Origin: Verrucomicrobiota bacterium
GTDB taxonomy: Bacteria > Verrucomicrobiota > Verrucomicrobiia > Limisphaerales > UBA11358
Assembly: GCA_050010675.1 (NCBI GenBank)
Contig: JBEKKN010000003.1
Coordinates: 1,668-65,667, forward strand
Reading direction: 5' to 3'
Length of the DNA: 64,000 nucleotides
Within the stretch, counting starts at the first letter, position 1; every line of letters starts with the position of its first letter. The notes under the pieces are model-generated. The model made no database searches and had not been told where the DNA came from. It worked only from the letters and a program-made list of their open reading frames with translations. The position numbers and the translations under genes were made by a program. Positions 2,717 through 53,832 of this stretch are shown one piece after another.

Positions 2717-3076
2717 CTACCCACGATAAACCGCGCGGGCCGTGCAGGTTTCGGCCACGACGATTTCCGTAAGCAACGGGAGTTTTGGCTTCAATTTCTT
2801 CCAAATCCAAACTGCGATTTCCTCGCTCGTGGGATTTTTGAGGCCGTGTATTTCGTTCAGGTAACGGTGGTCCAGCTTTTCCCAAACCGGCTTGAAGGCT
2901 GCGGTGATGTCGGCGTAATCCATCAGCCAGCCGAGCTTCGCGTCACATTCACCGGCGACAACGATGTCCACTTTGAAGCTGTGCCCGTGCAATCGCCGGC
3001 ACTTGTGGGATTTCGGCAGGCGCGGCAGCAGATGCGCCGCCTCAAACTGAAACGTTTTTCGTAATTCCATTTTCAT
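2717..3076 (-). CDS. queD: 6-carboxy-5,6,7,8-tetrahydropterin synthase
   Basis: About 120 aa containing FEAAHLLP, KCRRLHGHSFKV and LDHRYLNE, typical of QueD/PTPS. Start placed at ATG 3076; the longer ORF to 3109 would translate a tandem repeat. Confidence 0.85.
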   Translation of the reverse strand: MKMELRKTFQFEAAHLLPRLPKSHKCRRLHGHSFKVDIVVAGECDAKLGWLMDYADITAAFKPVWEKLDHRYLNEIHGLKNPTSEEIAVWIWKKLKPKLPLLTEIVVAETCTARAVYRG

Positions 3077-3083
3077 AATTTTC

Positions 3084-3222
3084 AACCACGGATGAACACG
3101 GATAAACACGGATACTAAAAATAAATCGCATACAGCCAGAGACCCCTTTCCCCGCGCCGCACGGGCCGAGGGCAGTGAAAGGCACTTTTCCTATCGGTGT
3201 CCATCTGTGTTTATCCGTGGTT
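3084..3222. repeat. Inverted arrays of three RAACACGGAT-type decamers flanking a 79-bp core (fills the luxC-like to queD spacer)
   Basis: Left arm 3084-3113: aaccacggat gaacacggat aaacacggat. Right arm 3193-3222: atcggtgtcc atctgtgttt atccgtggtt, the imperfect reverse complement. Confidence 0.8.
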
Positions 3223-3224
3223 AA

Positions 3225-4583
3225 TTACATTTCCCAATCCGTCCACGTCACCAAATCGCCCAGTGCCGGCCGGCCGTCGTGCCGCCAGGTCAGCGGCGGA
3301 TTTTGCATCTGGCCAAGCGGACAGACCCGCGTCACGCCCCACCGCGCCAGTTGCCGTGCCAGTTCTTCCGCCTGCTCCGGTGCGGCGATGCCGACCGCCG
3401 AAACCTTTCCACGCACGACCTCGGCGTTTTGCAGCAGCTCGGTCAAATCCTTCACCGGTTTTACGTAAATGAACCGGTTCAGGCACGAGGTTTGAAAACG
3501 CGCGTCCGCTTCAAAAACTACCGTCCACGCCGTGGACTCCTTGCTGTGCCACATCAGTGTTTCGGGTGAATGCGCCGCCCGCACCTCGTAAATGCCCCGG
3601 CGCGACGCGATGGTCGCCGCGTGCGGCGCCGGCAATTCGCCGCGCGGCTCGGTCTGTTCACGCCGTTCCAATTCGTCCGCCAGCAACTCCGCGAATCTTT
3701 CGGCCGAAGCGTCACCGCCCGATTGAACGTAAATCACGTGCGGCGACAGGCAGCCAAGCTGGTTCCACGCCACCACGTCATCCGTCACGCGCGCGGCGAC
3801 TCGCGGCGCGCCGGCATGGGATAAAACCTCCTTGGCGACAAAACCAAAGCTCACGCGATGGCCGTAACCAAGAAAGCGCCTGGGTGCCGGCAACCGCGAG
3901 CGGATGACTGCCAGCGCTTCATCGCTGCCGGTCGCCGTGACACAATCGGCTTCGGCAAACAGGATGTCCTCCAGATCCGCGTTTCCGCCACGCCATTGGG
4001 CCAATTCCAGGCAGGCGCCCAGCTTGGGATCCGCCTCGTAGAGCGAGTGCGCGAACAGGCGCGGCAGAAATGCCGAACCGCTCGCACATTTCACGAATTG
4101 CGCCGAGCGCACCAGCAAACCGAGCACGATGCCTGTCAACGTCGGATTGGGAATGTTGCCGGCGGCGATGTGAACGAGGAACTCCGGCCCAACGACCGTC
4201 GCCGCGCGCGACGATTTTTGTTCCACGTCAGTCGCGGTCATGACGTCCAACCGGCGGGTGCTGCCGAATTCCTGAACCAGCAACGCGTGCAAATGGTCCC
4301 GGGTGATTTGCCGGAAGAAGTCATCCAGACCGCGTTTCAGCGTTGCCATGGAAAAACCGGTTTCGGTCGGGCCGAGTTCCAGCGCCAGCTGCCGAAACGT
4401 GTTGTCGGGTTTCAGCCAGCTTTCCGCCACGTCACTCAACACGTTCACAATTTGTTCCGTCGAACGCCCGACCAGGTACCGCTCACGGTTGCGCTTCAGC
4501 GTCTGACACGCCTCCGCCAGCATGACCGGCGACAGGGTGGCTTCCGGCGGCAGATCGACGAGAAAATAGTTTGGCAGATTCAT
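3225..4583 (-). CDS. LuxC-like acyl-CoA (acyl-protein) reductase
   Basis: 452 aa. Aldehyde-dehydrogenase-like catalytic Cys context WNQLGCLSPHVIYV. Length and overall layout resemble the LuxC family by eye. Lies immediately downstream of a LuxE-like gene. Confidence 0.7.
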   Translation of the reverse strand: MNLPNYFLVDLPPEATLSPVMLAEACQTLKRNRERYLVGRSTEQIVNVLSDVAESWLKPDNTFRQLALELGPTETGFSMATLKRGLDDFFRQITRDHLHALLVQEFGSTRRLDVMTATDVEQKSSRAATVVGPEFLVHIAAGNIPNPTLTGIVLGLLVRSAQFVKCASGSAFLPRLFAHSLYEADPKLGACLELAQWRGGNADLEDILFAEADCVTATGSDEALAVIRSRLPAPRRFLGYGHRVSFGFVAKEVLSHAGAPRVAARVTDDVVAWNQLGCLSPHVIYVQSGGDASAERFAELLADELERREQTEPRGELPAPHAATIASRRGIYEVRAAHSPETLMWHSKESTAWTVVFEADARFQTSCLNRFIYVKPVKDLTELLQNAEVVRGKVSAVGIAAPEQAEELARQLARWGVTRVCPLGQMQNPPLTWRHDGRPALGDLVTWTDWEM

Positions 4584-4585
4584 CA

Positions 4586-4613
4586 GATTTACGATTTACG
4601 ATTTGCGATTTAC
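4586..4613. repeat. Four tandem heptamers GATTTAC/GATTTGC (GTAAATC on the minus/sense strand)
   Basis: gatttac gatttac gatttgc gatttac. The array contains the LuxE-like stop codon (4610-4612) and ends 2 nt before the luxC-like ATG (4583). Confidence 0.9.
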
Positions 4614-5935
4614 GCACTCATCAATGAACAGCCGCGCAGCTCAGCCATCCGGGCGCGACCCATTAATTCAAATCCGCCCTCCCGGCGAACACCCAAATCC
4701 TCCGTTTGAACAGCCATCACGGAAGAGACATTCGCCAGATCCAAAACCCGGATCAATCCCGTTTCGCCGTCCGCCACCTCACGTCCAGTCTCCGGTGAAA
4801 TTATTTGCACCCGGGCCCAGGGGGGAAAATGGAAGTGACAGGTGACCGGTGACAGGTGACACGATGAGGCGGCTTCTCCTGACACTTGCCACGTGTCACC
4901 TGTCACGCCATAAGCTTGCGAACCCAACTCGCTCATGCCGTATTCGCACACGATATTTTCGGGCTGAACGCCGAGCCGCTCCGTGATGAGCGCGTGCAAC
5001 TCCTCCTTTGGCATCGCGCGGGAACGGTTTTTGTAACCGCCGGTCTCCATCACGTGCGAACCGACCGGCAGTTGGACACGCAAATTGTTTTCCACCAGAA
5101 AATCCAGCAGATGCACGAATGAAAAGGCCGTACCAAGCAGGAGACGGGGTCTGGGGTCAGGGGTCCCGGATCCGGGAGACAAAGCGGCGAGCACGGCGTC
5201 AAAATCGAGTTCCCAGGAACCGTCGGCGGCAATTTTGCCAAGAAATTCGGCCCGGCTCGCGGGGACGCTCGCCCCATCCATTTTTTGCCGCACGGTTTCA
5301 AACATGTGGACGAGCGACGAATGCGGCGCCTGCTCCCGGGGCGGCGTAAGGCAAAGCAATCGTAAATCGCAAATCGTAAATCGCAAACCCGGCAGGACGC
5401 TGGCGAGAAACCACGACCACAATGAAGTCTCGTAGAGTTCCAATGAAGCGGGACAATGGAAATGGCGGCTTGGCTCTTGCCCGGTCGTGCCGCTGGAATG
5501 GAAAACGGCGGTGCGTTCCGGTGGCGGCAGGCAGGTCAGTTCCAGTTCCTTGAACGCGGCGGTTGGCACGGCGGGAATTTGCGTCCAGTGCTCGACCGTC
5601 CGTGGTGTACGGCCCCGCGCCTCGCAGATTTTTTGATAGGCAATGTTATGTTCGAATTGGAGCGCGAAAAGCTTGAGTGCCAGCGTGTCAAATGTCAGTT
5701 CCGGGTAGGGGCGGCGCGCTGCGCCGACCGGACGCCGCAGCGCGGCGTCCCTACCTTGAATGGCCTCGCGCAGGCGGGCGGCAAAACTGGAAAGTTCTTT
5801 ATGCACGCGGTTTTTGGTTGTCGGCTGGTTTTCCGCCACAGCCGAAGCGCAGGATAGCACGAAAGGCAACCGCAGCAAGTGTGATTGATGCGGGACTTGC
5901 GCCACAGGATTGCCAAGGCCGCTTTTGTCCGTCAC
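4610..5935 (-). CDS. LuxE-like acyl-protein synthetase (adenylate-forming), start uncertain
   Basis: Contains HSSGTTG, METGGYK, YGMSELGSQ and PPWARVQIISPETG blocks, as in LuxE/ANL-type enzymes. There is no in-frame ATG in the N-terminal ~200 codons; GTG candidates lie at 5935 and 5806. The ORF contains three repeat elements in frame. Confidence 0.7.
   Translation of the reverse strand: MTDKSGLGNPVAQVPHQSHLLRLPFVLSCASAVAENQPTTKNRVHKELSSFAARLREAIQGRDAALRRPVGAARRPYPELTFDTLALKLFALQFEHNIAYQKICEARGRTPRTVEHWTQIPAVPTAAFKELELTCLPPPERTAVFHSSGTTGQEPSRHFHCPASLELYETSLWSWFLASVLPGLRFTICDLRLLCLTPPREQAPHSSLVHMFETVRQKMDGASVPASRAEFLGKIAADGSWELDFDAVLAALSPGSGTPDPRPRLLLGTAFSFVHLLDFLVENNLRVQLPVGSHVMETGGYKNRSRAMPKEELHALITERLGVQPENIVCEYGMSELGSQAYGVTGDTWQVSGEAASSCHLSPVTCHFHFPPWARVQIISPETGREVADGETGLIRVLDLANVSSVMAVQTEDLGVRREGGFELMGRARMAELRGCSLMSA
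4835..4906. repeat. 72-nt hairpin element: 4 GTGACAG-type heptamers, 16-nt spacer, 4 inverted CTGTCAC-type heptamers (inside the LuxE-like CDS)
   Basis: gtgacag gtgaccg gtgacag gtgacac (4835-4862) and ctgacac ttgccac gtgtcac ctgtcac (4879-4906). The element is exactly 24 codons. Confidence 0.9.
5355..5389. repeat. Five NNAAATC heptamers inside the LuxE-like CDS (inverted relative to the 4586-4613 array)
   Basis: agcaatc gtaaatc gcaaatc gtaaatc gcaaacc on the plus strand. Translated on the minus strand as RFTICDLRLL. Confidence 0.85.
5704..5755. repeat. 52-nt GC-rich double-hairpin REP-like element (GGTAGGG...CCCTACC family), inside the LuxE-like ORF
   Basis: ggtaggggcggcgcgctgcgccgaccggacgccgcagcgcggcgtccctacc. 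It is the near-identical reverse complement of 53690-53741. Confidence 0.85.
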
Positions 5936-5947
5936 ACTGGTGGTTCA

Positions 5948-7513
5948 ATGAACAAACGGTTTTTTATCACGACCGCGATCGATTACGTGAACGGCCAGCC
6001 GCACCTCGGCCACGCCTACGAAAAGATCGTTGCCGACGTGATCGCGCGGTCGCGGCGCAGTCTGGGTCAGGAGGTTTTTTTCCTGACCGGTCTCGACGAG
6101 CACGGCCAGAAGGTCCAGCAGGCCGCCATTGCCGAAGGCAAGACGCCGCAGGCTTATTGCGACCAACTGGCGGCGGACTGGAAGGCGTTTGCGAAAAAAC
6201 TGGAACTGACCAACGATGATTTTGTCCGCACCACCGAGCCGCGCCACAAGGAATTTGTCCAGGCGATTCTGGCCAGACTTCACGCCGCCGGACAATTTTA
6301 CAAGGAAACTTACAAGGGCTTTTACTCGACGAAAGAGGAGACGTTTTTGACCGACAAGGACCGCCTGCCTGATGGCACGTTTGATCCGGCGTACGGTGAA
6401 GTCATTGAACTCGAGGAAAGCAACTACTGGTTCAAGCTGCGGGCGCAGCAGCAGTGGTTGATTGATTACCTCGAAGCGAACCCCACGTTTGTGCAGCCCG
6501 ACTACCGCCGCAACGAGGTGCTCGGCTTTCTCAAGAACAGCACTTTGGAAGATCTCTGCATCACGCGTCCGGCGGCGCGGTTGAACTGGGGCATTCCCCT
6601 GCCTTTCGACAAGGATTTTGTCACCTACGTCTGGTTCGACGCCCTGGTCAATTACATCAGCATCCCTGCCGCCCACGGCGATGCCACCGTTCTGGCCGCA
6701 TCGAACTCCGAACTCCGAACTCCGAACTCCGAGTTTGAATTGTGGCCCGCCGACATCCATGTCATCGGCAAGGACATCTTGAAATTTCACGCCGTGTTCT
6801 GGCCGATCATGCTCAAGGCGATGGGCCTGCCGCTGCCGAAACAAATTCTGGTCCACGGCTGGTGGCAGAAGGAAGGCGCGAAGATCAGCAAGAGCACCGG
6901 CAACATCGTTGACCCCATCGCGGTCATCGACGAATGGGGCCTGGACGCCTTTCGTTTTTACGTCCTGCGCGAGCTGGACATCGGACCGGACGGCAACTGG
7001 ACCGACGCCGGATTCAGAGCGCGATACCAGGCCGAGCTCGCCAACGGGCTGGGCAATCTGGTGAACCGCTCGCTCTCCATGCTCAAACGTTATCGCAACG
7101 GCGTCGTGCCGGCCAAACACGATGAACTGGCCGCCGCGGCCGCCAAGGCGGCGGATGAGACCCACGCGTTGTTGAAACTGAACCAGCTACAAGCCGCACT
7201 CCAAAGCATCTGGGGGCTGGTTACCCGCGCGAACCAATACGTGGACCAGACCAGGCCGTTCAGCCTGGCCAAGGATCCAGCCCAAGCCAAACGGCTTGAC
7301 GAGGTGCTCTATAATCTCGTGGAAACGTGCCGGGTACTCGCGGTATTGTTATGGCCGTTTCTGCCCGACACGGCCACGAAGATTTACGCGCAACTCGGTT
7401 TGACCGGTACACCGGACAAATTCTCCGAAGCCACGTGGGGCGGATTGCCACCCGGCCACCCAATCGGCGAACCGGCACCGCTCTTTCCGCGTAAAGACAG
7501 CCCGCAACCTTGA
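5948..7513 (+). CDS. metG: Methionine--tRNA ligase
   Basis: HIGH-type motif GQPHLGHAYEKI, KMSKS-type motif AKISKSTGN, and WPADIHVIGKDILKFH. Start placed at ATG 5948 (MNKRFFITTAIDY). Confidence 0.95.
   Translation: MNKRFFITTAIDYVNGQPHLGHAYEKIVADVIARSRRSLGQEVFFLTGLDEHGQKVQQAAIAEGKTPQAYCDQLAADWKAFAKKLELTNDDFVRTTEPRHKEFVQAILARLHAAGQFYKETYKGFYSTKEETFLTDKDRLPDGTFDPAYGEVIELEESNYWFKLRAQQQWLIDYLEANPTFVQPDYRRNEVLGFLKNSTLEDLCITRPAARLNWGIPLPFDKDFVTYVWFDALVNYISIPAAHGDATVLAASNSELRTPNSEFELWPADIHVIGKDILKFHAVFWPIMLKAMGLPLPKQILVHGWWQKEGAKISKSTGNIVDPIAVIDEWGLDAFRFYVLRELDIGPDGNWTDAGFRARYQAELANGLGNLVNRSLSMLKRYRNGVVPAKHDELAAAAAKAADETHALLKLNQLQAALQSIWGLVTRANQYVDQTRPFSLAKDPAQAKRLDEVLYNLVETCRVLAVLLWPFLPDTATKIYAQLGLTGTPDKFSEATWGGLPPGHPIGEPAPLFPRKDSPQP
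6703..6730. repeat. Four perfect tandem GAACTCC heptamers inside metG
   Basis: gaactcc x4, followed by gagtttg. Translated in frame as SNSELRTPNSEFE. Confidence 0.95.
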
Positions 7514-11879: not shown

Positions 11880-12827
11880 CTACCCAACCGACGCCGGCAC
11901 GATTGCATTTTTAATTTTATATTTTTCATTTCTTTGCAAGGCCAGGTCCACCATGCGCTGGCAAAGTTGCGCGTAATCCAACCCCGCCGCCGCCGCCGCC
12001 TTCGGCAATAAACTGGTTTCCGTCATGCCCGGCAGCGTGTTGACCTCCAGCACCACCGGTTCGCCGTCCGCACGCAGCATCACGTCCACGCGCGCGTAAT
12101 CCCGCCCGCCAACGGCCTGGAACGCACCCAGCGCCGCGTCCTGAATCCGCCGGGTCGTCGCCGCATCCAATGGCGCGGGGCAAAAATACTCCGTGCAACC
12201 GGCCGTATATTTGTTGCGATAATCGTAACTGCCGACCTTGGGCCGCACTTCCACCACCGGCAGCGGCCGGCCACCCAGAATACCGACCGTGGTTTCGCGG
12301 CCAATGATTTTTTCCTCGACCAGGACCTCCGAATCAAATTTCAAGGCTTCCGCCAGCGCCGGTTGCCAGTCTTCCACGCGCTCGACAAATTGTAATCCGA
12401 CGCTGGAACCCTGTCGCACCGGTTTCACCACCAACGGCGGCGACCAATCCTTCGGCCAGGGGGTTTCCGCCGAATTCACCACCAAAAACTTCGCCGTGGG
12501 AATTCCGGCTTGGATACAGCACTGCTTGGTCAGCACCTTATCGAAGGCAATCCGGCTCGCCCCGGCCTCGCAACCGGTGTAAACCGCGCCGAGTTCATCC
12601 AGGCGGCGTTGCACCGTGCCGTCCTCGCCGTAGGAGCCGTGCAACACCAGAAAGACCACGTCCGTCTCTCCCGGTAAAACCCATGCCGCATCGCCCGGAT
12701 CCAGTTCCCGGACCTCGTGGCCAAGCGAGCGCAACGCCTTGGCGACCGCCGCCCCGGAACGCAGGGACACTTCGCGTTCCGCGCTCGGACCGCCCAACAT
12801 CACCGTGATGTTCAATTTTGGATTCAT
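11880..12827 (-). CDS. ddl: D-alanine--D-alanine ligase
   Basis: ATP-grasp Ddl layout (GGPSAEREVSLRSG, HGSYGEDGTVQ, EVNTLPGMT). The ATG overlaps the murB stop (ATGA). Confidence 0.9.
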   Translation of the reverse strand: MNPKLNITVMLGGPSAEREVSLRSGAAVAKALRSLGHEVRELDPGDAAWVLPGETDVVFLVLHGSYGEDGTVQRRLDELGAVYTGCEAGASRIAFDKVLTKQCCIQAGIPTAKFLVVNSAETPWPKDWSPPLVVKPVRQGSSVGLQFVERVEDWQPALAEALKFDSEVLVEEKIIGRETTVGILGGRPLPVVEVRPKVGSYDYRNKYTAGCTEYFCPAPLDAATTRRIQDAALGAFQAVGGRDYARVDVMLRADGEPVVLEVNTLPGMTETSLLPKAAAAAGLDYAQLCQRMVDLALQRNEKYKIKNAIVPASVG

Positions 12828-30001: not shown

Positions 30002-30036
30002 GTCAATCGCAAATCAAAAATCCGAAATCGAAAATC
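30002..30036. repeat. Five NNAAATC heptamers filling the spacer upstream of sucD
   Basis: gtcaatc gcaaatc aaaaatc cgaaatc gaaaatc, then aa, then the ATG at 30039. Confidence 0.9.
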
Positions 30037-30038
30037 AA

Positions 30039-30941
30039 ATGTCCATTCTCGTCCAACCCGACACCAAGGTCCTGGTCCAGGGCATCACCGGCAGTTTCGG
30101 CGCCAAACACGCGCAGCTCTCGATGGATTACGGCACGCAGGTCGTTGCCGGCGTCACCCCTGGCAAAGGCGGCCAGGTCTTCGAACACGGCGGCAAAAAA
30201 GCGCCCATCTTTGATACCGTCGCCGAGGCGGTGAAGCAAACCGGCGCGACCGCCTCCGCCATTTTTGTTCCGGCGGCCTTTGCCGCGGACGCCGTCCTGG
30301 AAGGGGTGGACGCCGGGCTGGCCGTGGTGGTGTGCATCACGGAAGGCATTCCGGCGCGCGATATGATTCGCGTGAAGCGGGCCATGCAGGGCAACACCCT
30401 GACGCACCTGATCGGACCGAATTGTCCCGGCGTGGTCACCCCGGGTGAAGGCAAGGACTCTCATGGCGGTTGTCGTATCGGAATCGCGCCCGGTTACATT
30501 CACAAACAAGGCCACATCGGCGTCGTCTCCCGCAGCGGCACGCTCACTTACGAAGCCGTCTGGCAACTCACCTGTCGCGGCGCGGGCCAAAGCACCTGCG
30601 TCGGCATCGGCGGCGATCCAGTCCCCGGCCTGTCGCACCTGGACGTCATCAAACTGTTCAACGAAGACCCGGACACGCACGGGATCATCATGATCGGCGA
30701 AATCGGCGGCAGCGCCGAGGAGGAGGCCGCGGCCTGGATTAAAGCGCATGGCAAAAAGCCCGTGGCCGGATTCATCGCCGGGGCCACCGCGCCGCCCGGA
30801 CGCCGCATGGGTCACGCCGGCGCCATCATCAGCGGTGGCAAGGGCACGGCGGCGGCAAAGATGACGGCCTTCCGCGATGCAGGCATTGGCGTGGCCGCCA
30901 CGCCGAGTGAAATGGCGGACACCCTCTTGAAAATGATGTGA
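30039..30941 (+). CDS. sucD: Succinate--CoA ligase, alpha subunit
   Basis: [24 protein letters not shown] and a phosphohistidine block ([11 protein letters not shown]). Confidence 0.95.
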
Positions 30942-30943
30942 AT

Positions 30944-31003
30944 GTCGTTGAATCCTGAATCGTTAAGTCGTTAAATCGGTTTGACGATTCACCGGTTCAA
31001 CGG
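30944..31003. repeat. Imperfect hairpin built from CGTTGAA/TCGTTAA-type heptamers (sucD 3' spacer)
   Basis: The left arm tcgttgaatcctgaatcgt and the right arm acgattcaccggttcaacgg are imperfect reverse complements. Confidence 0.6.
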
Positions 31004-38300: not shown

Positions 38301-38328
38301 CAATCGTAAATCATCAATCGTAAATCAT
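38301..38328. repeat. Two tandem 14-mers (four NNAAATC-type heptamers) abutting the tmk start
   Basis: caatcgtaaatcat x2, then aa, then the ATG at 38331. Confidence 0.9.
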
Positions 38329-38330
38329 AA

Positions 38331-38987
38331 ATGGCAAGAGGCCTGTTCATCACATTTGAGGGCACGGAAGGCTGCGGCAAATCCACGCAGATTGAACTGC
38401 TCGCCAAAACGCTGCGCGTGCTCGGCTACCGCGTCCACATGCTGCGCGAGCCGGGCGGCACGCCCGTGGGCGAGGAAATCCGCCACACCCTCAAGCACAG
38501 CAAGGCCAACGTGGCCATGACCCCGGAAACCGAATTGCTGCTGGTGAACGCCAGCCGGGCGCAGCTCGTCCGGGAAATCATCCGCCCCGCGCTGGCCGTC
38601 GGTGAGGTCGTCCTGTCCGACCGCTTTTACGATTCGACCACGGCATACCAGGGTCATGGCCGGGGGCTCGATCTGGCGCTGGTGAAAAGCGTGATTGATG
38701 TTGCCGTGGGCGACACCCGGCCGGATTTGACCTTGTTTCTGCACGTGTCACCCGAAGTCAGCGCGGAACGGCTGCTGTCGCGGCAATCCACCCTGCCCTT
38801 CATCCGCGACCGGATGGAAGAAGGGGACCGGAACTTTTTTGCCCGCGTCGCCAAAGGCTACGAGGCCATTGCCGCCGCCGAACCCCGGCGCGTACAGGTG
38901 GTGGACGGCGCCAGCTCCATCGAGTTTGTCTGCGCAAAAATCTGGGAACAGGTGCAGCCCATCCTGCCGCGCGTCGGGCGTTGGTGA
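38331..38987 (+). CDS. tmk: Thymidylate kinase
   Basis: P-loop FEGTEGCGKST, DRFYDSTTAYQG, 218 aa. Confidence 0.9.
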   Translation: MARGLFITFEGTEGCGKSTQIELLAKTLRVLGYRVHMLREPGGTPVGEEIRHTLKHSKANVAMTPETELLLVNASRAQLVREIIRPALAVGEVVLSDRFYDSTTAYQGHGRGLDLALVKSVIDVAVGDTRPDLTLFLHVSPEVSAERLLSRQSTLPFIRDRMEEGDRNFFARVAKGYEAIAAAEPRRVQVVDGASSIEFVCAKIWEQVQPILPRVGRW

Positions 38988-42111: not shown

Positions 42112-42230
42112 GGACAGATGGACACAAATGAAAATGGATGGATGGATGGATGGATAAATGGAGAATTGGCGTTTTCACCAATCCATCAATCCATTTATCC
42201 ATCGATCCAACGATTGTATCCGGGTTCATC
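42112..42230. repeat. GGAT-rich imperfect inverted repeat (tyrA-aroA spacer)
   Basis: The tandem run aatggatggatggatggatggataaatgga faces ccaatccatcaatccatttatccatcgatcca. There is a perfect complementary 14-mer core: gatggataaatgga at 42149-42162 and tccatttatccatc at 42190-42203. It shares acagatggacac with the 3193-3222 arm. Confidence 0.75.
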
Positions 42231-44469: not shown

Positions 44470-45285
44470 GGCCTCCCGCACACTTTCCAAAATCACGTCG
44501 GCCAGATGCGGCTCGCTGCCGATGGCGGGCGCGTACCAGACCAGTTTGCTGTTTTTTTCAGTCGGATTGCGCCAGACCGGCTGGCCGGCGGCCAGCCGTT
44601 GCGAAACCGCCGCCCGGGATTCGCCCAGCAAAACCGGAATATCTTCCCGCGTGTGCAGCCCGTCGCTGATAAAAAACGGCACGACGACGAGATTTTTTGT
44701 CTGCGCGAGCTGGTAGCATTCGGGAATGCGCGGGCTTTCTTCAAGAAAAATCGCGTGCACACCGGCGTAAAGGTTCATCGCCCGCAGCAAGGCCACCTGC
44801 CGGTCAACCGGTTTGCGTGAATTCTCGTTTTTCTCCGTGCCATGCCCGGCAATGAACAGCGTGAGCTCTCCCGGCCGGGGCGCGCGGGGGAATGGAAACT
44901 TTTCAACAATTTCCCGGGCGCGGGACAGGATCACGCCCGTCATGCTGTCGTGCGAACCAACGGGACGGCAGTAAATCCGTGTTGAATGTTGAGTGTTGAG
45001 CGTTGAAAGACCAGGGGCAAAACCAAGCTCGCGGGGGATGACTTCACTGGCGAAATAGCCTTCGCTGATGAAAAGCGGTGCGATGAAGACGCGCGGCGCG
45101 GAAAGTTTCGCGAGGACCCGCTTGATTTGCGGTTGCTGTTTCCAGAACGCCTCGTGGACTTCGGCGAAAAGGCTCCGGCGGCGCAATTCCGCCGCGTGTT
45201 GACGGACCGGCGCGGCGGAATCGGCGTTTTGCTCCGTGCCGTGACCCAGCACCACGAGCGCGGCATCGGTAAAAGTATTGTCCAC
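44434..45285 (-). CDS. cbiX: Sirohydrochlorin chelatase, two-domain CbiX/SirB type
   Basis: Two CbiX-like halves (VVLGHGTEQNADS...APLFISEGYF and FIAGHGTEKNENS...VPFFISDGLH). Confidence 0.75.
   Translation of the reverse strand: MDNTFTDAALVVLGHGTEQNADSAAPVRQHAAELRRRSLFAEVHEAFWKQQPQIKRVLAKLSAPRVFIAPLFISEGYFASEVIPRELGFAPGLSTLNTQHSTRIYCRPVGSHDSMTGVILSRAREIVEKFPFPRAPRPGELTLFIAGHGTEKNENSRKPVDRQVALLRAMNLYAGVHAIFLEESPRIPECYQLAQTKNLVVVPFFISDGLHTREDIPVLLGESRAAVSQRLAAGQPVWRNPTEKNSKLVWYAPAIGSEPHLADVILESVREACRSRGDETRTE
44979..45006. repeat. Four RYGTTGA heptamers inside cbiX
   Basis: gtgttga atgttga gtgttga gcgttga. Translated on the minus strand as part of LSTLNTQHSTRIY, between the two CbiX halves. 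Confidence 0.9.
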
Positions 45286-45925: not shown

Positions 45926-47785
45926 TTACAACGGTGACAACGGCGCGCGTTTTTGTTCGCGCAACTTCTGCTGCTGGCGCAGCAATTCATTTTGTTCCGC
46001 TTCGGGCATGCCCGGCTGGCTGATTTTTTGGGTGAGGCTGGCGATTTGCCGGTCCAAAAATTGATTCCGCAATTTCGACGCGACGTCGCCCAGCTGCTGT
46101 TCGGGATTGGGAATTTTGCGGTCTTCGGCCACGGCTTCGGTGATGAGACCCCGCATTTCGGGCAATTCGCATTCGTCCAGAAACGCACCGAGACTCTTCC
46201 AGGTTTCATTCGTCTGCGCGGCGAGTCGTTGCGCGACAATTTGCCGCACGAGCGGATGGGAAATCCAATTCACATCCAGATGCAGCGCCGCCCAGGCCAC
46301 CAGATCGTCGTGCAACAGCAACAGTTTCAGCAGATGAAATTCATGATTCGGCGGACGTGACGGTTCCGACTGGCCGGCCATCGGTTCAGCCTCGCCCTGG
46401 TCCGGTTCGGTTCTCACCGCTGGAACCTTTTTGAATTCGGCCCGCACGGCCTCGGGCGCAACCCCCAGCCGCAATGCGGTTTTTTGCGCGTAGGTGTCAA
46501 TCAAGACGGAGTTGGCGGTTTTATGAATGGCCTCGGCCATGTCATGTAAAATGGTGTTCCGGCCCTTGTCGCTGTTGGCATCATTCTGCGCGCACAGCCG
46601 GTTCAAATAGTAATCGAAAAATCCCCCGGCATTTTCAACGAGCTTGCGAAAGGCTTCGCCGCCGTTGGCCTTGATAAAACTGTCCGGGTCGTGCGGCGCG
46701 GGCACGACGGCGACGCGCACCGCCAGGCCGGACGCGAGCAGATGGTCGAGTGAACGCACGGCGGCGTTCTGGCCGGCTTCGTCCGAATCGAAACAGAGCA
46801 CGACCTCGTCCGCGTACCGCTTGAGGATGCGTGCGTGCTGATCGGTGAAGGCGGTGCCCTGCGGCGCGACGACGTTTTGCACGCCGCCCATGAAGCAGGC
46901 GATCAAATCCAGCTGGCCTTCGCAGACCACCGCAAACCCGGCGTCGAGGATGGCGCGTTTCGATTTGTCGAGGCCGAAGAAAATCCTGCTCTTGGTGAAA
47001 ATCGGCGTCTCCGGCGAGTTGACGTATTTGGCCGTTTTTTCGTCGCCGGACAAAATCCGGCCGCTGAAACCGATTACCCTGCCCTGCTCGTCGCAAATGG
47101 GAAAGATGAGGCGCCCGCGGAAACGGTCATAGTAATGCCGGAAGGCAGACGCCTGAGGCCGGAGATCCGATTTCACACTTTCGCTTTCCGACTTCTGACT
47201 TCCGGCTTCTGACTTCTGAATAATAAGTCCGGCCTTTTCGACCAGCGGCAGGTCGTGGTCCTTGCTTTTGGCCCAATTGACCGTGTCATCCCACAAATCC
47301 GGCGCGGCGCCGAGGCGGAAGAGTTTTACGGCGTCAGCGGATACACCGCGTTTGGCCAGATAATCGCGGGCCATCTGCCCGGCGGCCTCATTGAGCAGGC
47401 AATTCTGCCAGCGTTGCGCGATTTGCTCGTGAATCTGGAGTAATTGGTCCTTGAGATGACGGGTTTGCTGTTCGGCGGGGTTTTGATCAAATTCGAGCGG
47501 AACCTTCGCACGGTCGGCCAGGCGGCGCACAGCGTCGACGAAACCGATGTTTTCGTATTCCTTGACGAAGGTGAACACGTCACCGCCCTTGTGGCAGCCG
47601 AAACAATGGAATATCTGCCGGTGCGGATTGACGTTGAAGCTCGGGCTTTTTTCCTTGTGAAAGGGGCAGAGCGCGACAAAGTTCGCCCCGGCCTTTTTCA
47701 ACGGCAGATACGAGCCAATGACATCCACAATGTCACTGGCCGCGCGGATGCGTTCAAGGATTGCAGGAGGTATGGTGCCCGCCAT
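45926..47785 (-). CDS. dnaG: DNA primase
   Basis: Zinc-ribbon CPFHKEKSPSFNV...CFGCHKGGD, YDRFRGRLIFPI, and TOPRIM blocks VVCEGQLD and CFDSDEAGQNA. Confidence 0.9.
   Translation of the reverse strand: MAGTIPPAILERIRAASDIVDVIGSYLPLKKAGANFVALCPFHKEKSPSFNVNPHRQIFHCFGCHKGGDVFTFVKEYENIGFVDAVRRLADRAKVPLEFDQNPAEQQTRHLKDQLLQIHEQIAQRWQNCLLNEAAGQMARDYLAKRGVSADAVKLFRLGAAPDLWDDTVNWAKSKDHDLPLVEKAGLIIQKSEAGSQKSESESVKSDLRPQASAFRHYYDRFRGRLIFPICDEQGRVIGFSGRILSGDEKTAKYVNSPETPIFTKSRIFFGLDKSKRAILDAGFAVVCEGQLDLIACFMGGVQNVVAPQGTAFTDQHARILKRYADEVVLCFDSDEAGQNAAVRSLDHLLASGLAVRVAVVPAPHDPDSFIKANGGEAFRKLVENAGGFFDYYLNRLCAQNDANSDKGRNTILHDMAEAIHKTANSVLIDTYAQKTALRLGVAPEAVRAEFKKVPAVRTEPDQGEAEPMAGQSEPSRPPNHEFHLLKLLLLHDDLVAWAALHLDVNWISHPLVRQIVAQRLAAQTNETWKSLGAFLDECELPEMRGLITEAVAEDRKIPNPEQQLGDVASKLRNQFLDRQIASLTQKISQPGMPEAEQNELLRQQQKLREQKRAPLSPL
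47167..47222. repeat. Eight YNNNCTT-type heptamers (AAGTCAG on the sense strand) inside dnaG
   Basis: ccgattt cacactt tcgcttt ccgactt ctgactt ccggctt ctgactt ctgaata. Translated on the minus strand as QKSEAGSQKSESESVKSD. Confidence 0.85.
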
Positions 47786-53681: not shown

Positions 53682-53689
53682 AATAAGAT

Positions 53690-53741
53690 GGTAGGGACGC
53701 CGCGCTGCGGCGTCCGGACAGCGCAGCGCGCTGTCCCTACC
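53690..53741. repeat. 52-nt double-hairpin REP-like element (GGTAGGG...CCCTACC family), 9 nt upstream of the CDGSH gene start
   Basis: ggtagggacgccgcgctgcggcgtccggacagcgcagcgcgctgtccctacc. It is the reverse complement of 5704-5755 with few differences. Confidence 0.9.
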
Positions 53742-53832
53742 TTTAAATCGCCACACTCCCGTGTTTCCTTCAACACCCAAAACTCAGCCACGATAGGCCG
53801 CCCCTGTCAATCCCGACTTGCCGGAAACCCTG

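Follow-up and report, generated by a model that had tools for sequence, protein, structure and literature searches.

The luxE gene described here carries at least five small repeats, at sites A to E, all of them in frame. Most probably these repeats are 'selfish' DNA tolerated in permissive loops of the LuxE protein, rather than a sign of decay or a special feature of the protein, because in relatives these five loops hold other repeats or none. The gene lies on the reverse strand of the window (the whole 64-kb stretch of DNA that was analysed) as ORF 4610..5935, with 441 codons in the program-made ORF list. The initial annotation had described three unrelated elements in frame within this LuxE-like ORF, those of sites A, B and E. 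They are present as placed and far beyond chance, but sites B and E both belong to the tandem-heptamer class and two further in-frame elements, at sites C and D, had been overlooked (Table 1).

The ORF matches the Pfam LuxE family PF04443 (4.1e-13, 49.4 bits against a cut-off of 24.9) in an alignment restricted to residues 264-438; besides LuxE, Pfam gives a sub-threshold AMP-binding match and no intein domain for this ORF. The orthologue profile aligns with both halves of the solved LuxE structure PDB 7xc6_E (7.8e-17), with GCSL on GCSL. Residues S104 S105 G106 T107 T108 and R391 G392 C393 S394 L395 are invariant among the orthologues, and the nucleotide-binding SSGTTG motif and the conserved C-terminal cysteine of the family are both present. 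In the LuxE proteins of Vibrio and Photobacterium the acylation-site cysteine is found near the C terminus. ORF 4610-5935 thus appears to be an intact, functional LuxE-type enzyme gene with a putative fatty-acid activating activity. It is open throughout its 441 codons as annotated, but GTG 5806-5804 is the likelier start, since about 80% of the orthologues have a methionine at the equivalent position and the 40 nt upstream form a highly conserved non-coding leader. The real coding sequence is therefore probably 4610-5806, which encodes 398 aa and ends with a TAA stop at 4612-4610.

The luxC gene follows 26 nt downstream and this synteny is kept in the related contigs L081-L085; luxE and luxC appear to form a functional operon of Limisphaerales (Verrucomicrobia subdivision 3), here of a soil or peat verrucomicrobium. 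A single luxE frame is recovered by tblastn in 80 of 80 related species, all Limisphaerales MAGs, which serve as the comparison set. The core of the gene evolves with a dN/dS of 0.11-0.19 (dS 0.7-1.6, 309 core codons). luxE is intact and under purifying selection, and the earlier opinion that it is not a decaying pseudogene holds.

Table 1. Repeat elements of the luxE region and associated features of the window
Feature	Coordinates	Strand	Details
Site A, GTAG-tagged REP, double or long hairpin	5703..5755	-	in frame, peptide GRDAALRRPVGAARRPYP
Site B, tandem heptamer array	5358..5387	-	sense GATTTRC, about 4.3 units (TRF); peptide RFTICDLRLL
Site C, 5-codon insert	5261..5275	-	in frame, sense GGGGCGAGCGTCCCC, peptide GASVP
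Site D, heptamer array	5146..5173	-	+ strand GGGGTCN x3 then CGGATCC; peptide GSGTPDPRP
Site E, inverted pair of four-heptamer arrays	4835..4906	-	24 codons, VTGDTWQVSGEAASSCHLSPVTCH
luxE-luxC spacer, 26 nt	4584..4609	-	entirely CGTAAAT/CGCAAAT heptamers
luxC (acyl-CoA reductase), downstream operon partner	3225..4583	-	PF05893, 5.7e-67
Sister REP copy	53690..53741	+	same REP family as site A; folds as double hairpin

Site A is located between the N-terminal helix and the FxxLALxLF helix of LuxE and reads GGGTAGGGGCGG...CCCTACC, a sequence for which shuffles give an expectation of 0. The annotated REP is found here as a short G+C-rich stem-loop ended by GTAG (GGTAGGGAC...GTCCCTACC), with a stable RNA fold of -40 to -43 kcal/mol (z about -4.5 to -5); on inspection by eye, two of its three reading frames are open. 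The sister copy differs from it by a few substitutions, including a paired change in the second stem (by eye). The sister copy was annotated as non-coding. This is probably correct, since a CDGSH iron-sulfur gene on the - strand has its ATG (53681) 9 nt past the end of the copy, which would accordingly lie in the 5' UTR of this gene. An ORF nevertheless remains open across the sister copy, in the same frame. The REP family has two clear copies in the 64 kb and is present at the orthologous site of at least five other species. A RAYT-like gene gave no match within the 64-kb window, in a weak test with an approximate E. coli RAYT query sequence.

The remaining sites mostly contain tandem heptamers. 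Period 7 is a genuine genome feature: it accounts for seven arrays in the window, where periods 4-6 and 8-13 have 0-2, and for 217 in the 80 related loci, where the other periods have 0-14. Copy number in the window is 4.1-4.4 (TRF), and in-frame arrays also occur in other housekeeping genes of the window, namely metG, dnaG and cbiX. With 1.48 arrays per kb, luxE is about eight times as dense in them as its flanks, which have 0.18 per kb. A total of 224 arrays fall into 27 unit families, of which the top six account for 71% of the arrays and are each found at several different sites; GTSACNN, ATTTACG, AACTCNN, AATCSGC, AAGTCAG and other families coexist. Strict detection of inverted array pairs misses most of the known cases. 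The heptamers annotated as translated at site B are recovered by TRF as an array with the extent given in Table 1, and site C is probably the remnant of a larger hairpin element known at this site in other species. The junction array extends over 4586-4614, its first unit provides the TAA stop of luxE, and it repeats the site B array in inverted orientation, with 27 nt that are 96% complementary to 5361-5387. A conserved long-range RNA pairing of 4588-4614 with 5361-5387 was provisionally rejected, as by eye it does not seem to be conserved; many species have GATTTAC at site B without a junction array (by eye).

Site E is the most elaborate element. Its sense strand is laid out as GTGACNN x4, a 16-nt spacer and NNGTCAC x4, with arms of 30 nt that are 80% complementary and 12 nt apart, and its RNA folds at -40.3 kcal/mol (z -6.0). 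As annotated, the palindrome makes up exactly 24 codons between conserved blocks, here YGMSELGSQAY and FHFPPW. In 15 of 15 species the third unit of the left arm has G at its position 4, giving TGG in place of an in-frame TGA, whereas the other units mostly have A there; ribosomes thus appear to read through site E. This argues against processing of the RNA, which the initial annotation had offered as one way out, and a scan of Rfam matched no intron, ribozyme or other family and gave a sub-threshold miRNA-precursor look-alike only. No further GTGAC palindrome exists elsewhere in the 64-kb window. Metagenomes widely contain (GTGRCNN)x4 arrays, and palindromic pairs as well.

Across the 80 species the LuxE orthologues are 353-504 aa long and sites A-E are either empty or filled with different repeats. 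All sites are unoccupied in only two of 81 genes, and three to five are filled in most. At site A, 24 species have a short or bare form of about 8 aa, 18 have an array of CAATCSG-type heptamers, and 31 have a long insert that forms a hairpin, several of these inserts being GTAG-tagged. Site B contains an array in 52 of the 80 species, made of 25 different units, and its bare form of 8 aa differs from the array form of 15 aa by 21 nt, or three units. Site C has a 13-aa form in 24 of the 80 species, an 8-aa form in 37 and long inserts in six, and site D an array in 50 of the 80 with 20 different units, the commonest of which is TCGTCAC (peptide NSSLVTRHPS). For site E 27 different heptamer units are seen; it is short or bare in 10 of the 80 species, with five or six residues when empty (ADENGT, AISGGK) as opposed to 25, and has a long non-heptamer insert in 22. 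Empty forms have loop lengths similar to those of canonical LuxE. It had been suggested that the protein tolerates the repeat-derived peptides, and this is borne out by orthologues with unrelated peptides of this kind or none at the same places. The same orthologues answer the concern that repeat-free relatives might encode the same segments, as those with empty sites lack them. In some species the elements are nested: heptamer arrays lie within GTAG hairpins at site A of L020 and L056, and a GTAG hairpin lies within a heptamer palindrome in L125.

The AF2 model (59 close orthologues) is of low confidence with a mean pLDDT of 62, and Foldseek with this model retrieves only the general PaaK/ANL fold (TM about 0.3 to PaaK-type ligases). 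Sites A-E fall between the predicted helices and strands of this low-confidence model and coincide with indel sites relative to the 7xc6 LuxE, and it is mainly on this indel pattern that their placement in surface loops rests.

The lengths of the arrays differ according to their position. Across species the luxE-luxC spacer measures -4, 5-7, 11-13, 19-20, 26-27, 34 or 40 nt, which are 7-nt steps, whereas coding arrays differ by multiples of 3, such as the 21 nt of site B; 7-nt steps are thus only seen where the array is non-coding. The initial annotation considered three in-frame insertions improbable, an argument that loses its force since selection removes out-of-frame and stop-containing insertions, so that survivors are necessarily in frame, and since the REP is open in two of three frames. 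Where identity between species is 0.3-0.4, a base and the one 7 nt downstream of it have an identity of about 0.8 within a species. The heptamer units evolve in concert, being alike within a species and different between species.

Near-identical strains give a closer view of the turnover. Site E is a hot spot of differences from a 99.1%-identical strain. Hypermutation in situ was rejected on account of about 20 nt of flanking substitutions that travel along with the site, and a recombination patch, which distinguishes the two strains, is preferred for the same reason. Similarly, what looked like a concerted switch from A:T to G:C in a comparison of the window with L081 is explained by an imported allele that L082 and L083 also have.

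It is proposed that the lineage is rich in GTAG-tagged REP hairpins and in arrays of about four heptamers, which occur singly or in inverted pairs, and that both kinds of repeat would settle at five permissive LuxE sites between conserved blocks. The repeats would be transcribed and then, as the open frames suggest, translated as low-complexity extra loop peptides. Selection would merely act as a filter for insert lengths that are multiples of 3 and for a stop-free frame, leaving the peptide sequence free, and this filter would account for the change of TGA to TGG in the palindrome. Arrays would turn over in place, so that units are alike within a genome and drift between genomes, while whole alleles would pass between lineages through homologous recombination. 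The inserts are likely to be neutral or slightly deleterious for the enzyme; REPs may arrive via a RAYT-type transposase, and heptamers through slippage or another copying process.

Among the alternatives, a nucleic-acid function is rather unlikely. The repeats would serve as mRNA hairpins or as iterated protein-binding sites, with GTSAC every 7 nt, and could tune translation, mRNA stability or luxE-luxC coupling, or else be recognition sites of a copying or repair enzyme, their read-through being a side effect. The GTGAC core of all eight site E units is 0.9-1.0 identical across species in all three codon phases, compared with 0.525 at 4-fold sites and a neutral level at unit positions 6-7 and in the loop, but these species were picked for at least 2+2 GTGRC/GYCAC motifs and the figure is therefore somewhat inflated. 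Arrays also persist at the same positions in many species with the eight-fold enrichment in luxE, the hairpins of sites A and E are very stable, and the junction array, immediately before the luxC start, takes the place of an ancestral ATGA overlap of start and stop. In metagenomes palindromic GTGAC pairs are often placed directly past stop codons in a terminator-like position, and 69 of 91 GTGRC arrays have exactly four units, a predominance shared with Geobacter and Xanthomonas (PMC2700814, PMC4692102). However, the arms of site E do not covary: of 28 positions, 20.2 pair when both arms come from one species and 20.2 when they come from different species (p = 0.56, 15 species), and the values with G-U pairs allowed (23.6 and 23.5, the same 15 species) show no excess either, so that compensatory evolution of the 72-nt hairpin was rejected. 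The sense and antisense strands of site E fold about equally well (-38.9 and -36.9 kcal/mol), the palindrome is replaced by short or bare forms and by long non-heptamer inserts in the 10 and 22 species mentioned above, and several species with a CGTAAAT junction carry an unrelated unit at site B (by eye).

It is likewise doubtful that four-unit arrays, above all (GTGACNN)4-spacer-(NNGTCAC)4, constitute a distinct class of actively maintained elements rather than passive products of slippage. GTSAC would then form 5-bp sites at 7-bp spacing that are written, copied or bound by a putative protein, an improbable scheme in which machinery or selection would hold the cores constant even inside coding sequence and the arrays in luxE and at the junction would affect operon expression. 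The preferred reading of tolerated repeats in turn does not explain everything: pure neutrality leaves the core identity of GTGAC relative to 4-fold sites and the eight-fold array density of luxE over its neighbours unaccounted for, and tolerance of repeats does not explain how units are homogenised without frameshifted intermediates.

It is very unlikely that the peptides are adaptive, i.e. flexible loops under protein-level selection that modulate LuxC docking or substrate access. It is true that the inserts keep to the same five loops, that a site E peptide of the class VTxDxWxVTG...SxHLSPVTxH is present in most of the 120 closest homologues, and that a similar peptide (GVASGRWQVTG...RVTCHVSL) is found where a metagenomic pair lies in frame in an unrelated 855-aa membrane-protein ORF. 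Yet codon positions 1, 2 and 3 of site E are equally conserved (0.76, 0.80 and 0.78), which indicates conservation at the level of the nucleotides and not of the peptide, and the same loops hold chemically unrelated peptides or none. The conserved tryptophan is attributable to TGA avoidance and the membrane-protein peptide to recurrence of the same DNA element. The suggestion in the initial annotation that the protein uses these peptides therefore finds no peptide-level conservation in its favour.

With a 7-nt unit that is not a multiple of 3 and arrays inside ORFs, the heptamers might also be taken for contingency (phase-variation) switches of luxE, metG and dnaG that operate via 7-nt slippage, all the more as the unconstrained junction array changes by single units and luxE or metG is called in pieces in two near-identical contigs. 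Nevertheless this is extremely unlikely: all 80 species are in frame, and the arrays of site B, site D and metG have the same length in the window and in the 99%-identical L081 and L085, without any +/-7-nt variants. What breaks the genes of L085 is a scatter of 1-nt indels away from the arrays, probably sequencing errors, and L081 with its split metG has an array region of the same length as the window. The arrays moreover have only about four imperfect units and are located in essential genes such as metG and dnaG. A pseudogene, an assembly artefact or intron- or intein-like segments removed before translation would account for nothing beyond the oddity of the sequence and have a next to negligible probability, given the same arrangement in independent assemblies from many samples, the low dN/dS, the avoided in-frame TGA and the lack of an Rfam intron or ribozyme match and of a Pfam intein domain.

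The tolerated repeats of luxE are a known kind of phenomenon, represented by the RPEs of Rickettsia, intragenic REPs and the heptamers of Geobacter, in an unusually dense form. It was initially thought that the phenomenon had not been described, but it is known from other genes and lineages (PMC3733652, PMC2700814, PMC4679880); as far as the literature searches show, in-frame palindromic repeats and intragenic heptamers are new for LuxE and for Limisphaerales. The five sites provide a natural map of the loop tolerance of one enzyme, with 5 to >50 foreign residues accommodated in hundreds of wild genomes, and an unusually clean view of how repeats behave in genes, comprising the frame filter, stop avoidance, concerted evolution and allele exchange. 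The picture of 'selfish DNA in coding genes', drawn from Rickettsia, now takes in free-living Verrucomicrobia that abound in soil and peat, and the sites isolate the question of why four-unit arrays are so common in distant bacteria and what holds their cores constant. In practical terms, such inserts inflate or fragment protein families, as in the Pfam alignment that covers the C-terminal half only, and break metagenome assemblies and gene calls.

RPEs are inserted in frame in protein-coding genes of Rickettsia (Ogata et al. 2000, as cited in PMC3733652). Like the luxE inserts they are small palindromic repeats in functional ORFs that are read in frame as extra segments, and many unrelated proteins tolerate them, in some cases with several in one gene. 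The resemblance is functional only: the sequences are presumably unrelated, and the present host is free-living with a large genome; luxE further differs in its five recurrently occupied sites in one gene, whose contents vary by species, and in its mixture of repeat classes (REP, tandem heptamers and inverted heptamer pairs). Di Nocera et al. (2013, PMC3733652) described GTAG-tagged REPs, also within genes, in Opitutus terrae of the Verrucomicrobia and elsewhere; the intragenic copies encode 20-30 extra residues and N-terminal cases call for care with the start codon (PMC3733652). The element of site A shares with them the GTAG tag, the G+C-rich stems and the dimer organisation. It differs from them in REP sequence family and in host order, and the orthologous site holds several types of hairpin insert, some of them GTAG-tagged, or heptamers.

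REPINs are REP doublets that form hairpins (Bertels and Rainey 2011, PMC3116915). Site E is alike in that two inverted 28-nt modules around a short spacer form one long hairpin. Unlike in a REPIN, each module consists of four tandem heptamers, and there is no population of near-identical copies in the 64-kb window, the copies of other genomes being found at few recurrent sites. In Nostoc small dispersed repeats are reportedly nested in tandem heptamers. The two cases would share tiny repeats or heptamers inside conserved genes that are not destroyed by them, and nested elements; the phylum and the sequences differ.

The STRR sequences of cyanobacteria are tandem heptanucleotide arrays. Further heptamer repeats are GGGACCG x4 of Geobacter metallireducens, with 49 copies that also occur within genes (PMC2700814), the GGGAATC-type arrays of Xanthomonas and Nostoc (PMC4692102) and the TAACTGA repeats of Beggiatoaceae and Microcystis, which are translated (PMC4679880). 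The luxE arrays resemble these known arrays in their period of 7, in their typically four units and in being dispersed between and within genes. In both, length and sequence vary between close relatives and intragenic copies are read as 7-residue periodic peptides. What sets the luxE arrays apart is the large number of unit families, the conserved orthologous positions across 80 species combined with concerted evolution, and the inverted pairs that give rise to 70-nt hairpins inside coding sequence.

The luxE-family ORF and its neighbours are described in the table below. A solved LuxE chain, 7xc6_E, is matched by the orthologue profile at 7.8e-17 with the C-terminal GCSL included, and SSGTT and RGCSL are invariant in 59 aligned homologues. 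A protein search returned more than 6,000 homologues, and the top 120 of these belong to Verrucomicrobiota MAGs (60-98% identity, 376-504 aa, one truncated entry aside). A scan with one genome per species provided 80 luxE loci; in nearly all cases the label is Verrucomicrobia subdivision 3 or Limisphaerales, and a few record titles differ. The initial annotation considered a decaying pseudogene improbable, and this view is borne out, as luxE is matched in one frame in 80/80 loci (353-504 aa) and the core dN/dS of 0.11-0.19 at dS 0.7-1.6 (309 codons) indicates a functional gene. Translation most likely begins at the GTG at 5806, for a protein of 398 aa, because Met occupies that column in about 80% of orthologues and the upstream 40 nt are not codon-like. 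This 40-nt stretch directly 5' of the start (UCGGCUGUGGCGGAAAACCAGCCGACAACCAAAAACCGC; window 5807-5850, minus) shows conservation of at least 90% across 79 species, far above synonymous sites and with no codon-like pattern, and includes a small inverted repeat, CGGCUG..CAGCCG. It has no match in Rfam and may serve the luxE-luxC operon as leader or operator.

Features of the window, with the occupancy of insert sites A-E across the related luxE loci
Feature	Position	Strand	Description
luxE-family ORF	4610-5935	minus	441 codons; Pfam LuxE PF04443, 4.1e-13
luxC acyl-CoA reductase	3225-4583	minus	26 nt downstream of luxE; PF05893, 5.7e-67
metG	from ~5948		divergent from luxE
Site A (REP)	5703-5755	minus	bare or short (~8 aa) in 24 species; heptamer arrays in 18; long hairpin-forming inserts in 31
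Site B (heptamer array)	5358-5387	minus	bare or short form 8 aa; heptamer arrays in 52 species, 25 different units
Site C (5-codon insert)	5261-5275	minus	overlooked initially; bare or short (8 aa) in 37 species; no heptamer arrays; 5-codon insert in 24, long inserts in 6
Site D (in-frame heptamer array)	5146-5173	minus	overlooked initially; heptamer arrays in 50 species, 20 units
Site E (72-nt palindrome)	4835-4906	minus	bare or short form 5-6 aa; heptamer arrays in 41 species, 27 units; long non-heptamer inserts in 22
Spacer array	4586-4614		overlooked initially; fills luxE-luxC spacer, provides luxE stop codon
metG in-frame heptamer array	6697-6737	plus	peptide SNSELRTPNSEFE
CbiX-family gene in-frame heptamer array	44978-45009	minus	peptide LSTLNTQHST
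dnaG in-frame heptamer array	47166-47219	minus	peptide KSEAGSQKSESESVKS

The three repeat elements first reported inside luxE lie at the positions originally given and their translations agree; the observation is correct and understates the case. Three further elements were overlooked. The GTAG-tagged hairpin repeat (REP) at site A has a single occurrence at up to three mismatches (0 expected), with a folding energy near -40 kcal/mol (z about -4.5 to -5). TRF detects heptamer arrays at 5358-5387, 4835-4861 and 4878-4906, the latter two forming one 72-nt hairpin of -40.3 kcal/mol (z -6.0). The sister REP (53690-53741), initially called non-coding, is probably so: it stops 9 nt 5' of the ATG with which a CDGSH-domain gene begins, although it might conceivably encode an N-terminal extension. 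Over 53682-53783 (minus) the ORF of this gene is open across the sister REP in the same frame as in luxE, GRDSALRCPDAAARRPYH, and contains upstream TTG and GTG codons.

Length differences of luxE are confined to five sites, the three original elements among them, and only 2/81 luxE genes have no site occupied. Several of the long site A inserts are GTAG-tagged, and the GTGAC palindrome accounts for about 15 of the 41 heptamer-array species at site E. The loops of bare sites are similar in length to canonical LuxE, and all five sites fall between predicted helices or strands in a weak AlphaFold model (pLDDT 62; TM ~0.3 to PaaK-type ligases). The proposal that the protein tolerates these peptides is thus upheld by sites that are bare or carry different repeats across 80 species, while the alternatives that it uses the peptides or that the RNA is processed find no support. 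In two species (L020 and L056) site A holds a GTAGGAGACGACG...CGTCGGCTCCTAC hairpin whose loop contains nested heptamer arrays.

Period 7 is a specific feature. With an identical array test applied to every period, the window contains 7 arrays at period 7 vs 0-2 at periods 4-6 and 8-13, and the 80 related loci contain 217 vs 0-14. At period 14, twice 7, the counts are 4 and 106 arrays, respectively. Neighbouring units of one array are about 80% identical whereas orthologous arrays of different species share only 30-40% at those positions, a case of concerted evolution. The 224 arrays sort into 27 unit families; 71% belong to six families that each occur at several sites and genes. Array density is 1.48 per kb in luxE vs 0.18 per kb in the flanks, where arrays recur at set positions within metG and luxC and downstream of luxC. 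Among the 80 loci, at least nine species carry a GTGAC/GTCAC-type array about +360..+430 nt into luxC, where the window is empty, and at least ten an inverted AGTCAGT/ACTGACT pair after luxC (about +1400..+1520 nt) that probably acts as a terminator hairpin.

Contig L081 is 99.1% identical to the window across 15.9 kb, and 38/136 differences lie in the 72-nt element. The L081 allele agrees, along with about 20 nt of flanking sequence, with those of L082 and L083 (proteins P0019 and P0006, 68% and 82% identical to that of the window), and the allele of the window matches L084. Alleles are therefore exchanged by recombination, which rules out local hypermutation here. A further contig, L085, is 99.3% identical to window 3379-7339, with 9/26 differences in or beside the element and a 4-nt deletion in the luxE-luxC spacer array. 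The gene calls for metG and luxE are fragmented in L081 and L085, and in L085 the cause is scattered 1-nt indels resembling sequencing errors. L083 also encodes a gene with Pfam matches to 23S_rRNA_IVP / bAvd (2734-3141, between luxC and a PTPS gene) that is absent from the window, L081 and L082.

Signs in the sequence suggest that the luxE inserts would be translated and merely filtered. Each GTGAC unit contains TGA, and three units cover all three frames; in the luxE frame a stop would arise only in left-arm unit 3, which is GTGGC (Trp) in 15/15 species at a position that is mostly A in other units. Coding arrays vary in length by multiples of 3, as at site B, where forms of 8 and 15 aa lie 21 nt, or three units, apart. 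The ATTTACG family occurs there in the stop-free sense orientation, and its opposite orientation, containing TAA, only in the luxE-luxC spacer. In 26 species this non-coding spacer is replaced by an ATGA overlap (-4); in the remainder it measures 5-7, 11-13, 19-20, 26-27, 34 or 40 nt, a series of whole heptamers added singly.

It is unlikely that the repeats are instead kept as working nucleic-acid elements, for example as a hairpin. Arm-to-arm pairing shows no excess within species over that between species (20.2 vs 20.2 of 28, p = 0.56; 23.6 vs 23.5 of 28 with G-U allowed), and the sense and antisense strands of the palindrome fold about equally well. The main ground for such a role is that the GTGAC core is 0.9-1.0 identical in all eight units and every codon phase across 15 species, in sequences chosen with at least 2+2 core motifs and hence with some ascertainment bias, vs 0.525 at four-fold sites, a neutral level at which the loop and unit positions 6-7 also lie. 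The neutral model does not account for this conservation, the ascertainment bias notwithstanding, and the nucleic-acid role is mainly for this reason retained as an unlikely alternative.

The same class of element is widespread. Scanning metagenomes for (GTGRCNN)x4 found at least 120 contigs, with a G+C of 0.41-0.73 among the matches listed. In 80 metagenomic loci analysed, 69/91 arrays have exactly four units and about ten loci have the inverted-pair architecture, several immediately 3' of stop codons. In L152 the palindrome is in frame within an 855-aa membrane-protein ORF of normal coding composition (GVASGRWQVTG...RVTCHVSL), with Trp at the critical unit here too. In metagenome contig L125 (12646.., minus) a GTGAC heptamer palindrome has a GTAG hairpin nested in its spacer. 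Within the window, the in-frame arrays of metG, dnaG and the CbiX-family gene lie in three further housekeeping genes; the one in metG recurs in place, built of different units, in many of the 80 related species. Further AAATCNN / AATCGTA-type arrays, whose unit family is that of the luxE-luxC spacer and site B, are located at the ends of genes or between them (30011-30039, 30958-30978, 38302-38332 and 11906-11931), their coding status being judged from ORF geometry alone. An intergenic element at 42132-42209, with two inverted (A)ATGGAT-type arrays and a 16-nt spacer (TRF period 4/8/12), resembles the 72-nt palindrome in architecture, differs in period and may be terminator-like.

Literature searches found no report for Limisphaerales or LuxE. 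For other genes and lineages, in-frame palindromic repeats (the RPEs of Rickettsia) and intragenic GTAG/CGTC REPs of several species, among them the verrucomicrobium Opitutus terrae, are described in PMC3733652, and TAACTGA arrays of Beggiatoaceae and cyanobacteria are reported to be occasionally translated (PMC4679880). Heptamer arrays of Xanthomonas and Nostoc are reported to have a modal count of four units (PMC4692102), and polymerase slippage favoured by 7 nt is an idea summarised in PMC4679880. The luxE repeats are a dense form of a known phenomenon, and this dense form spans a whole lineage.
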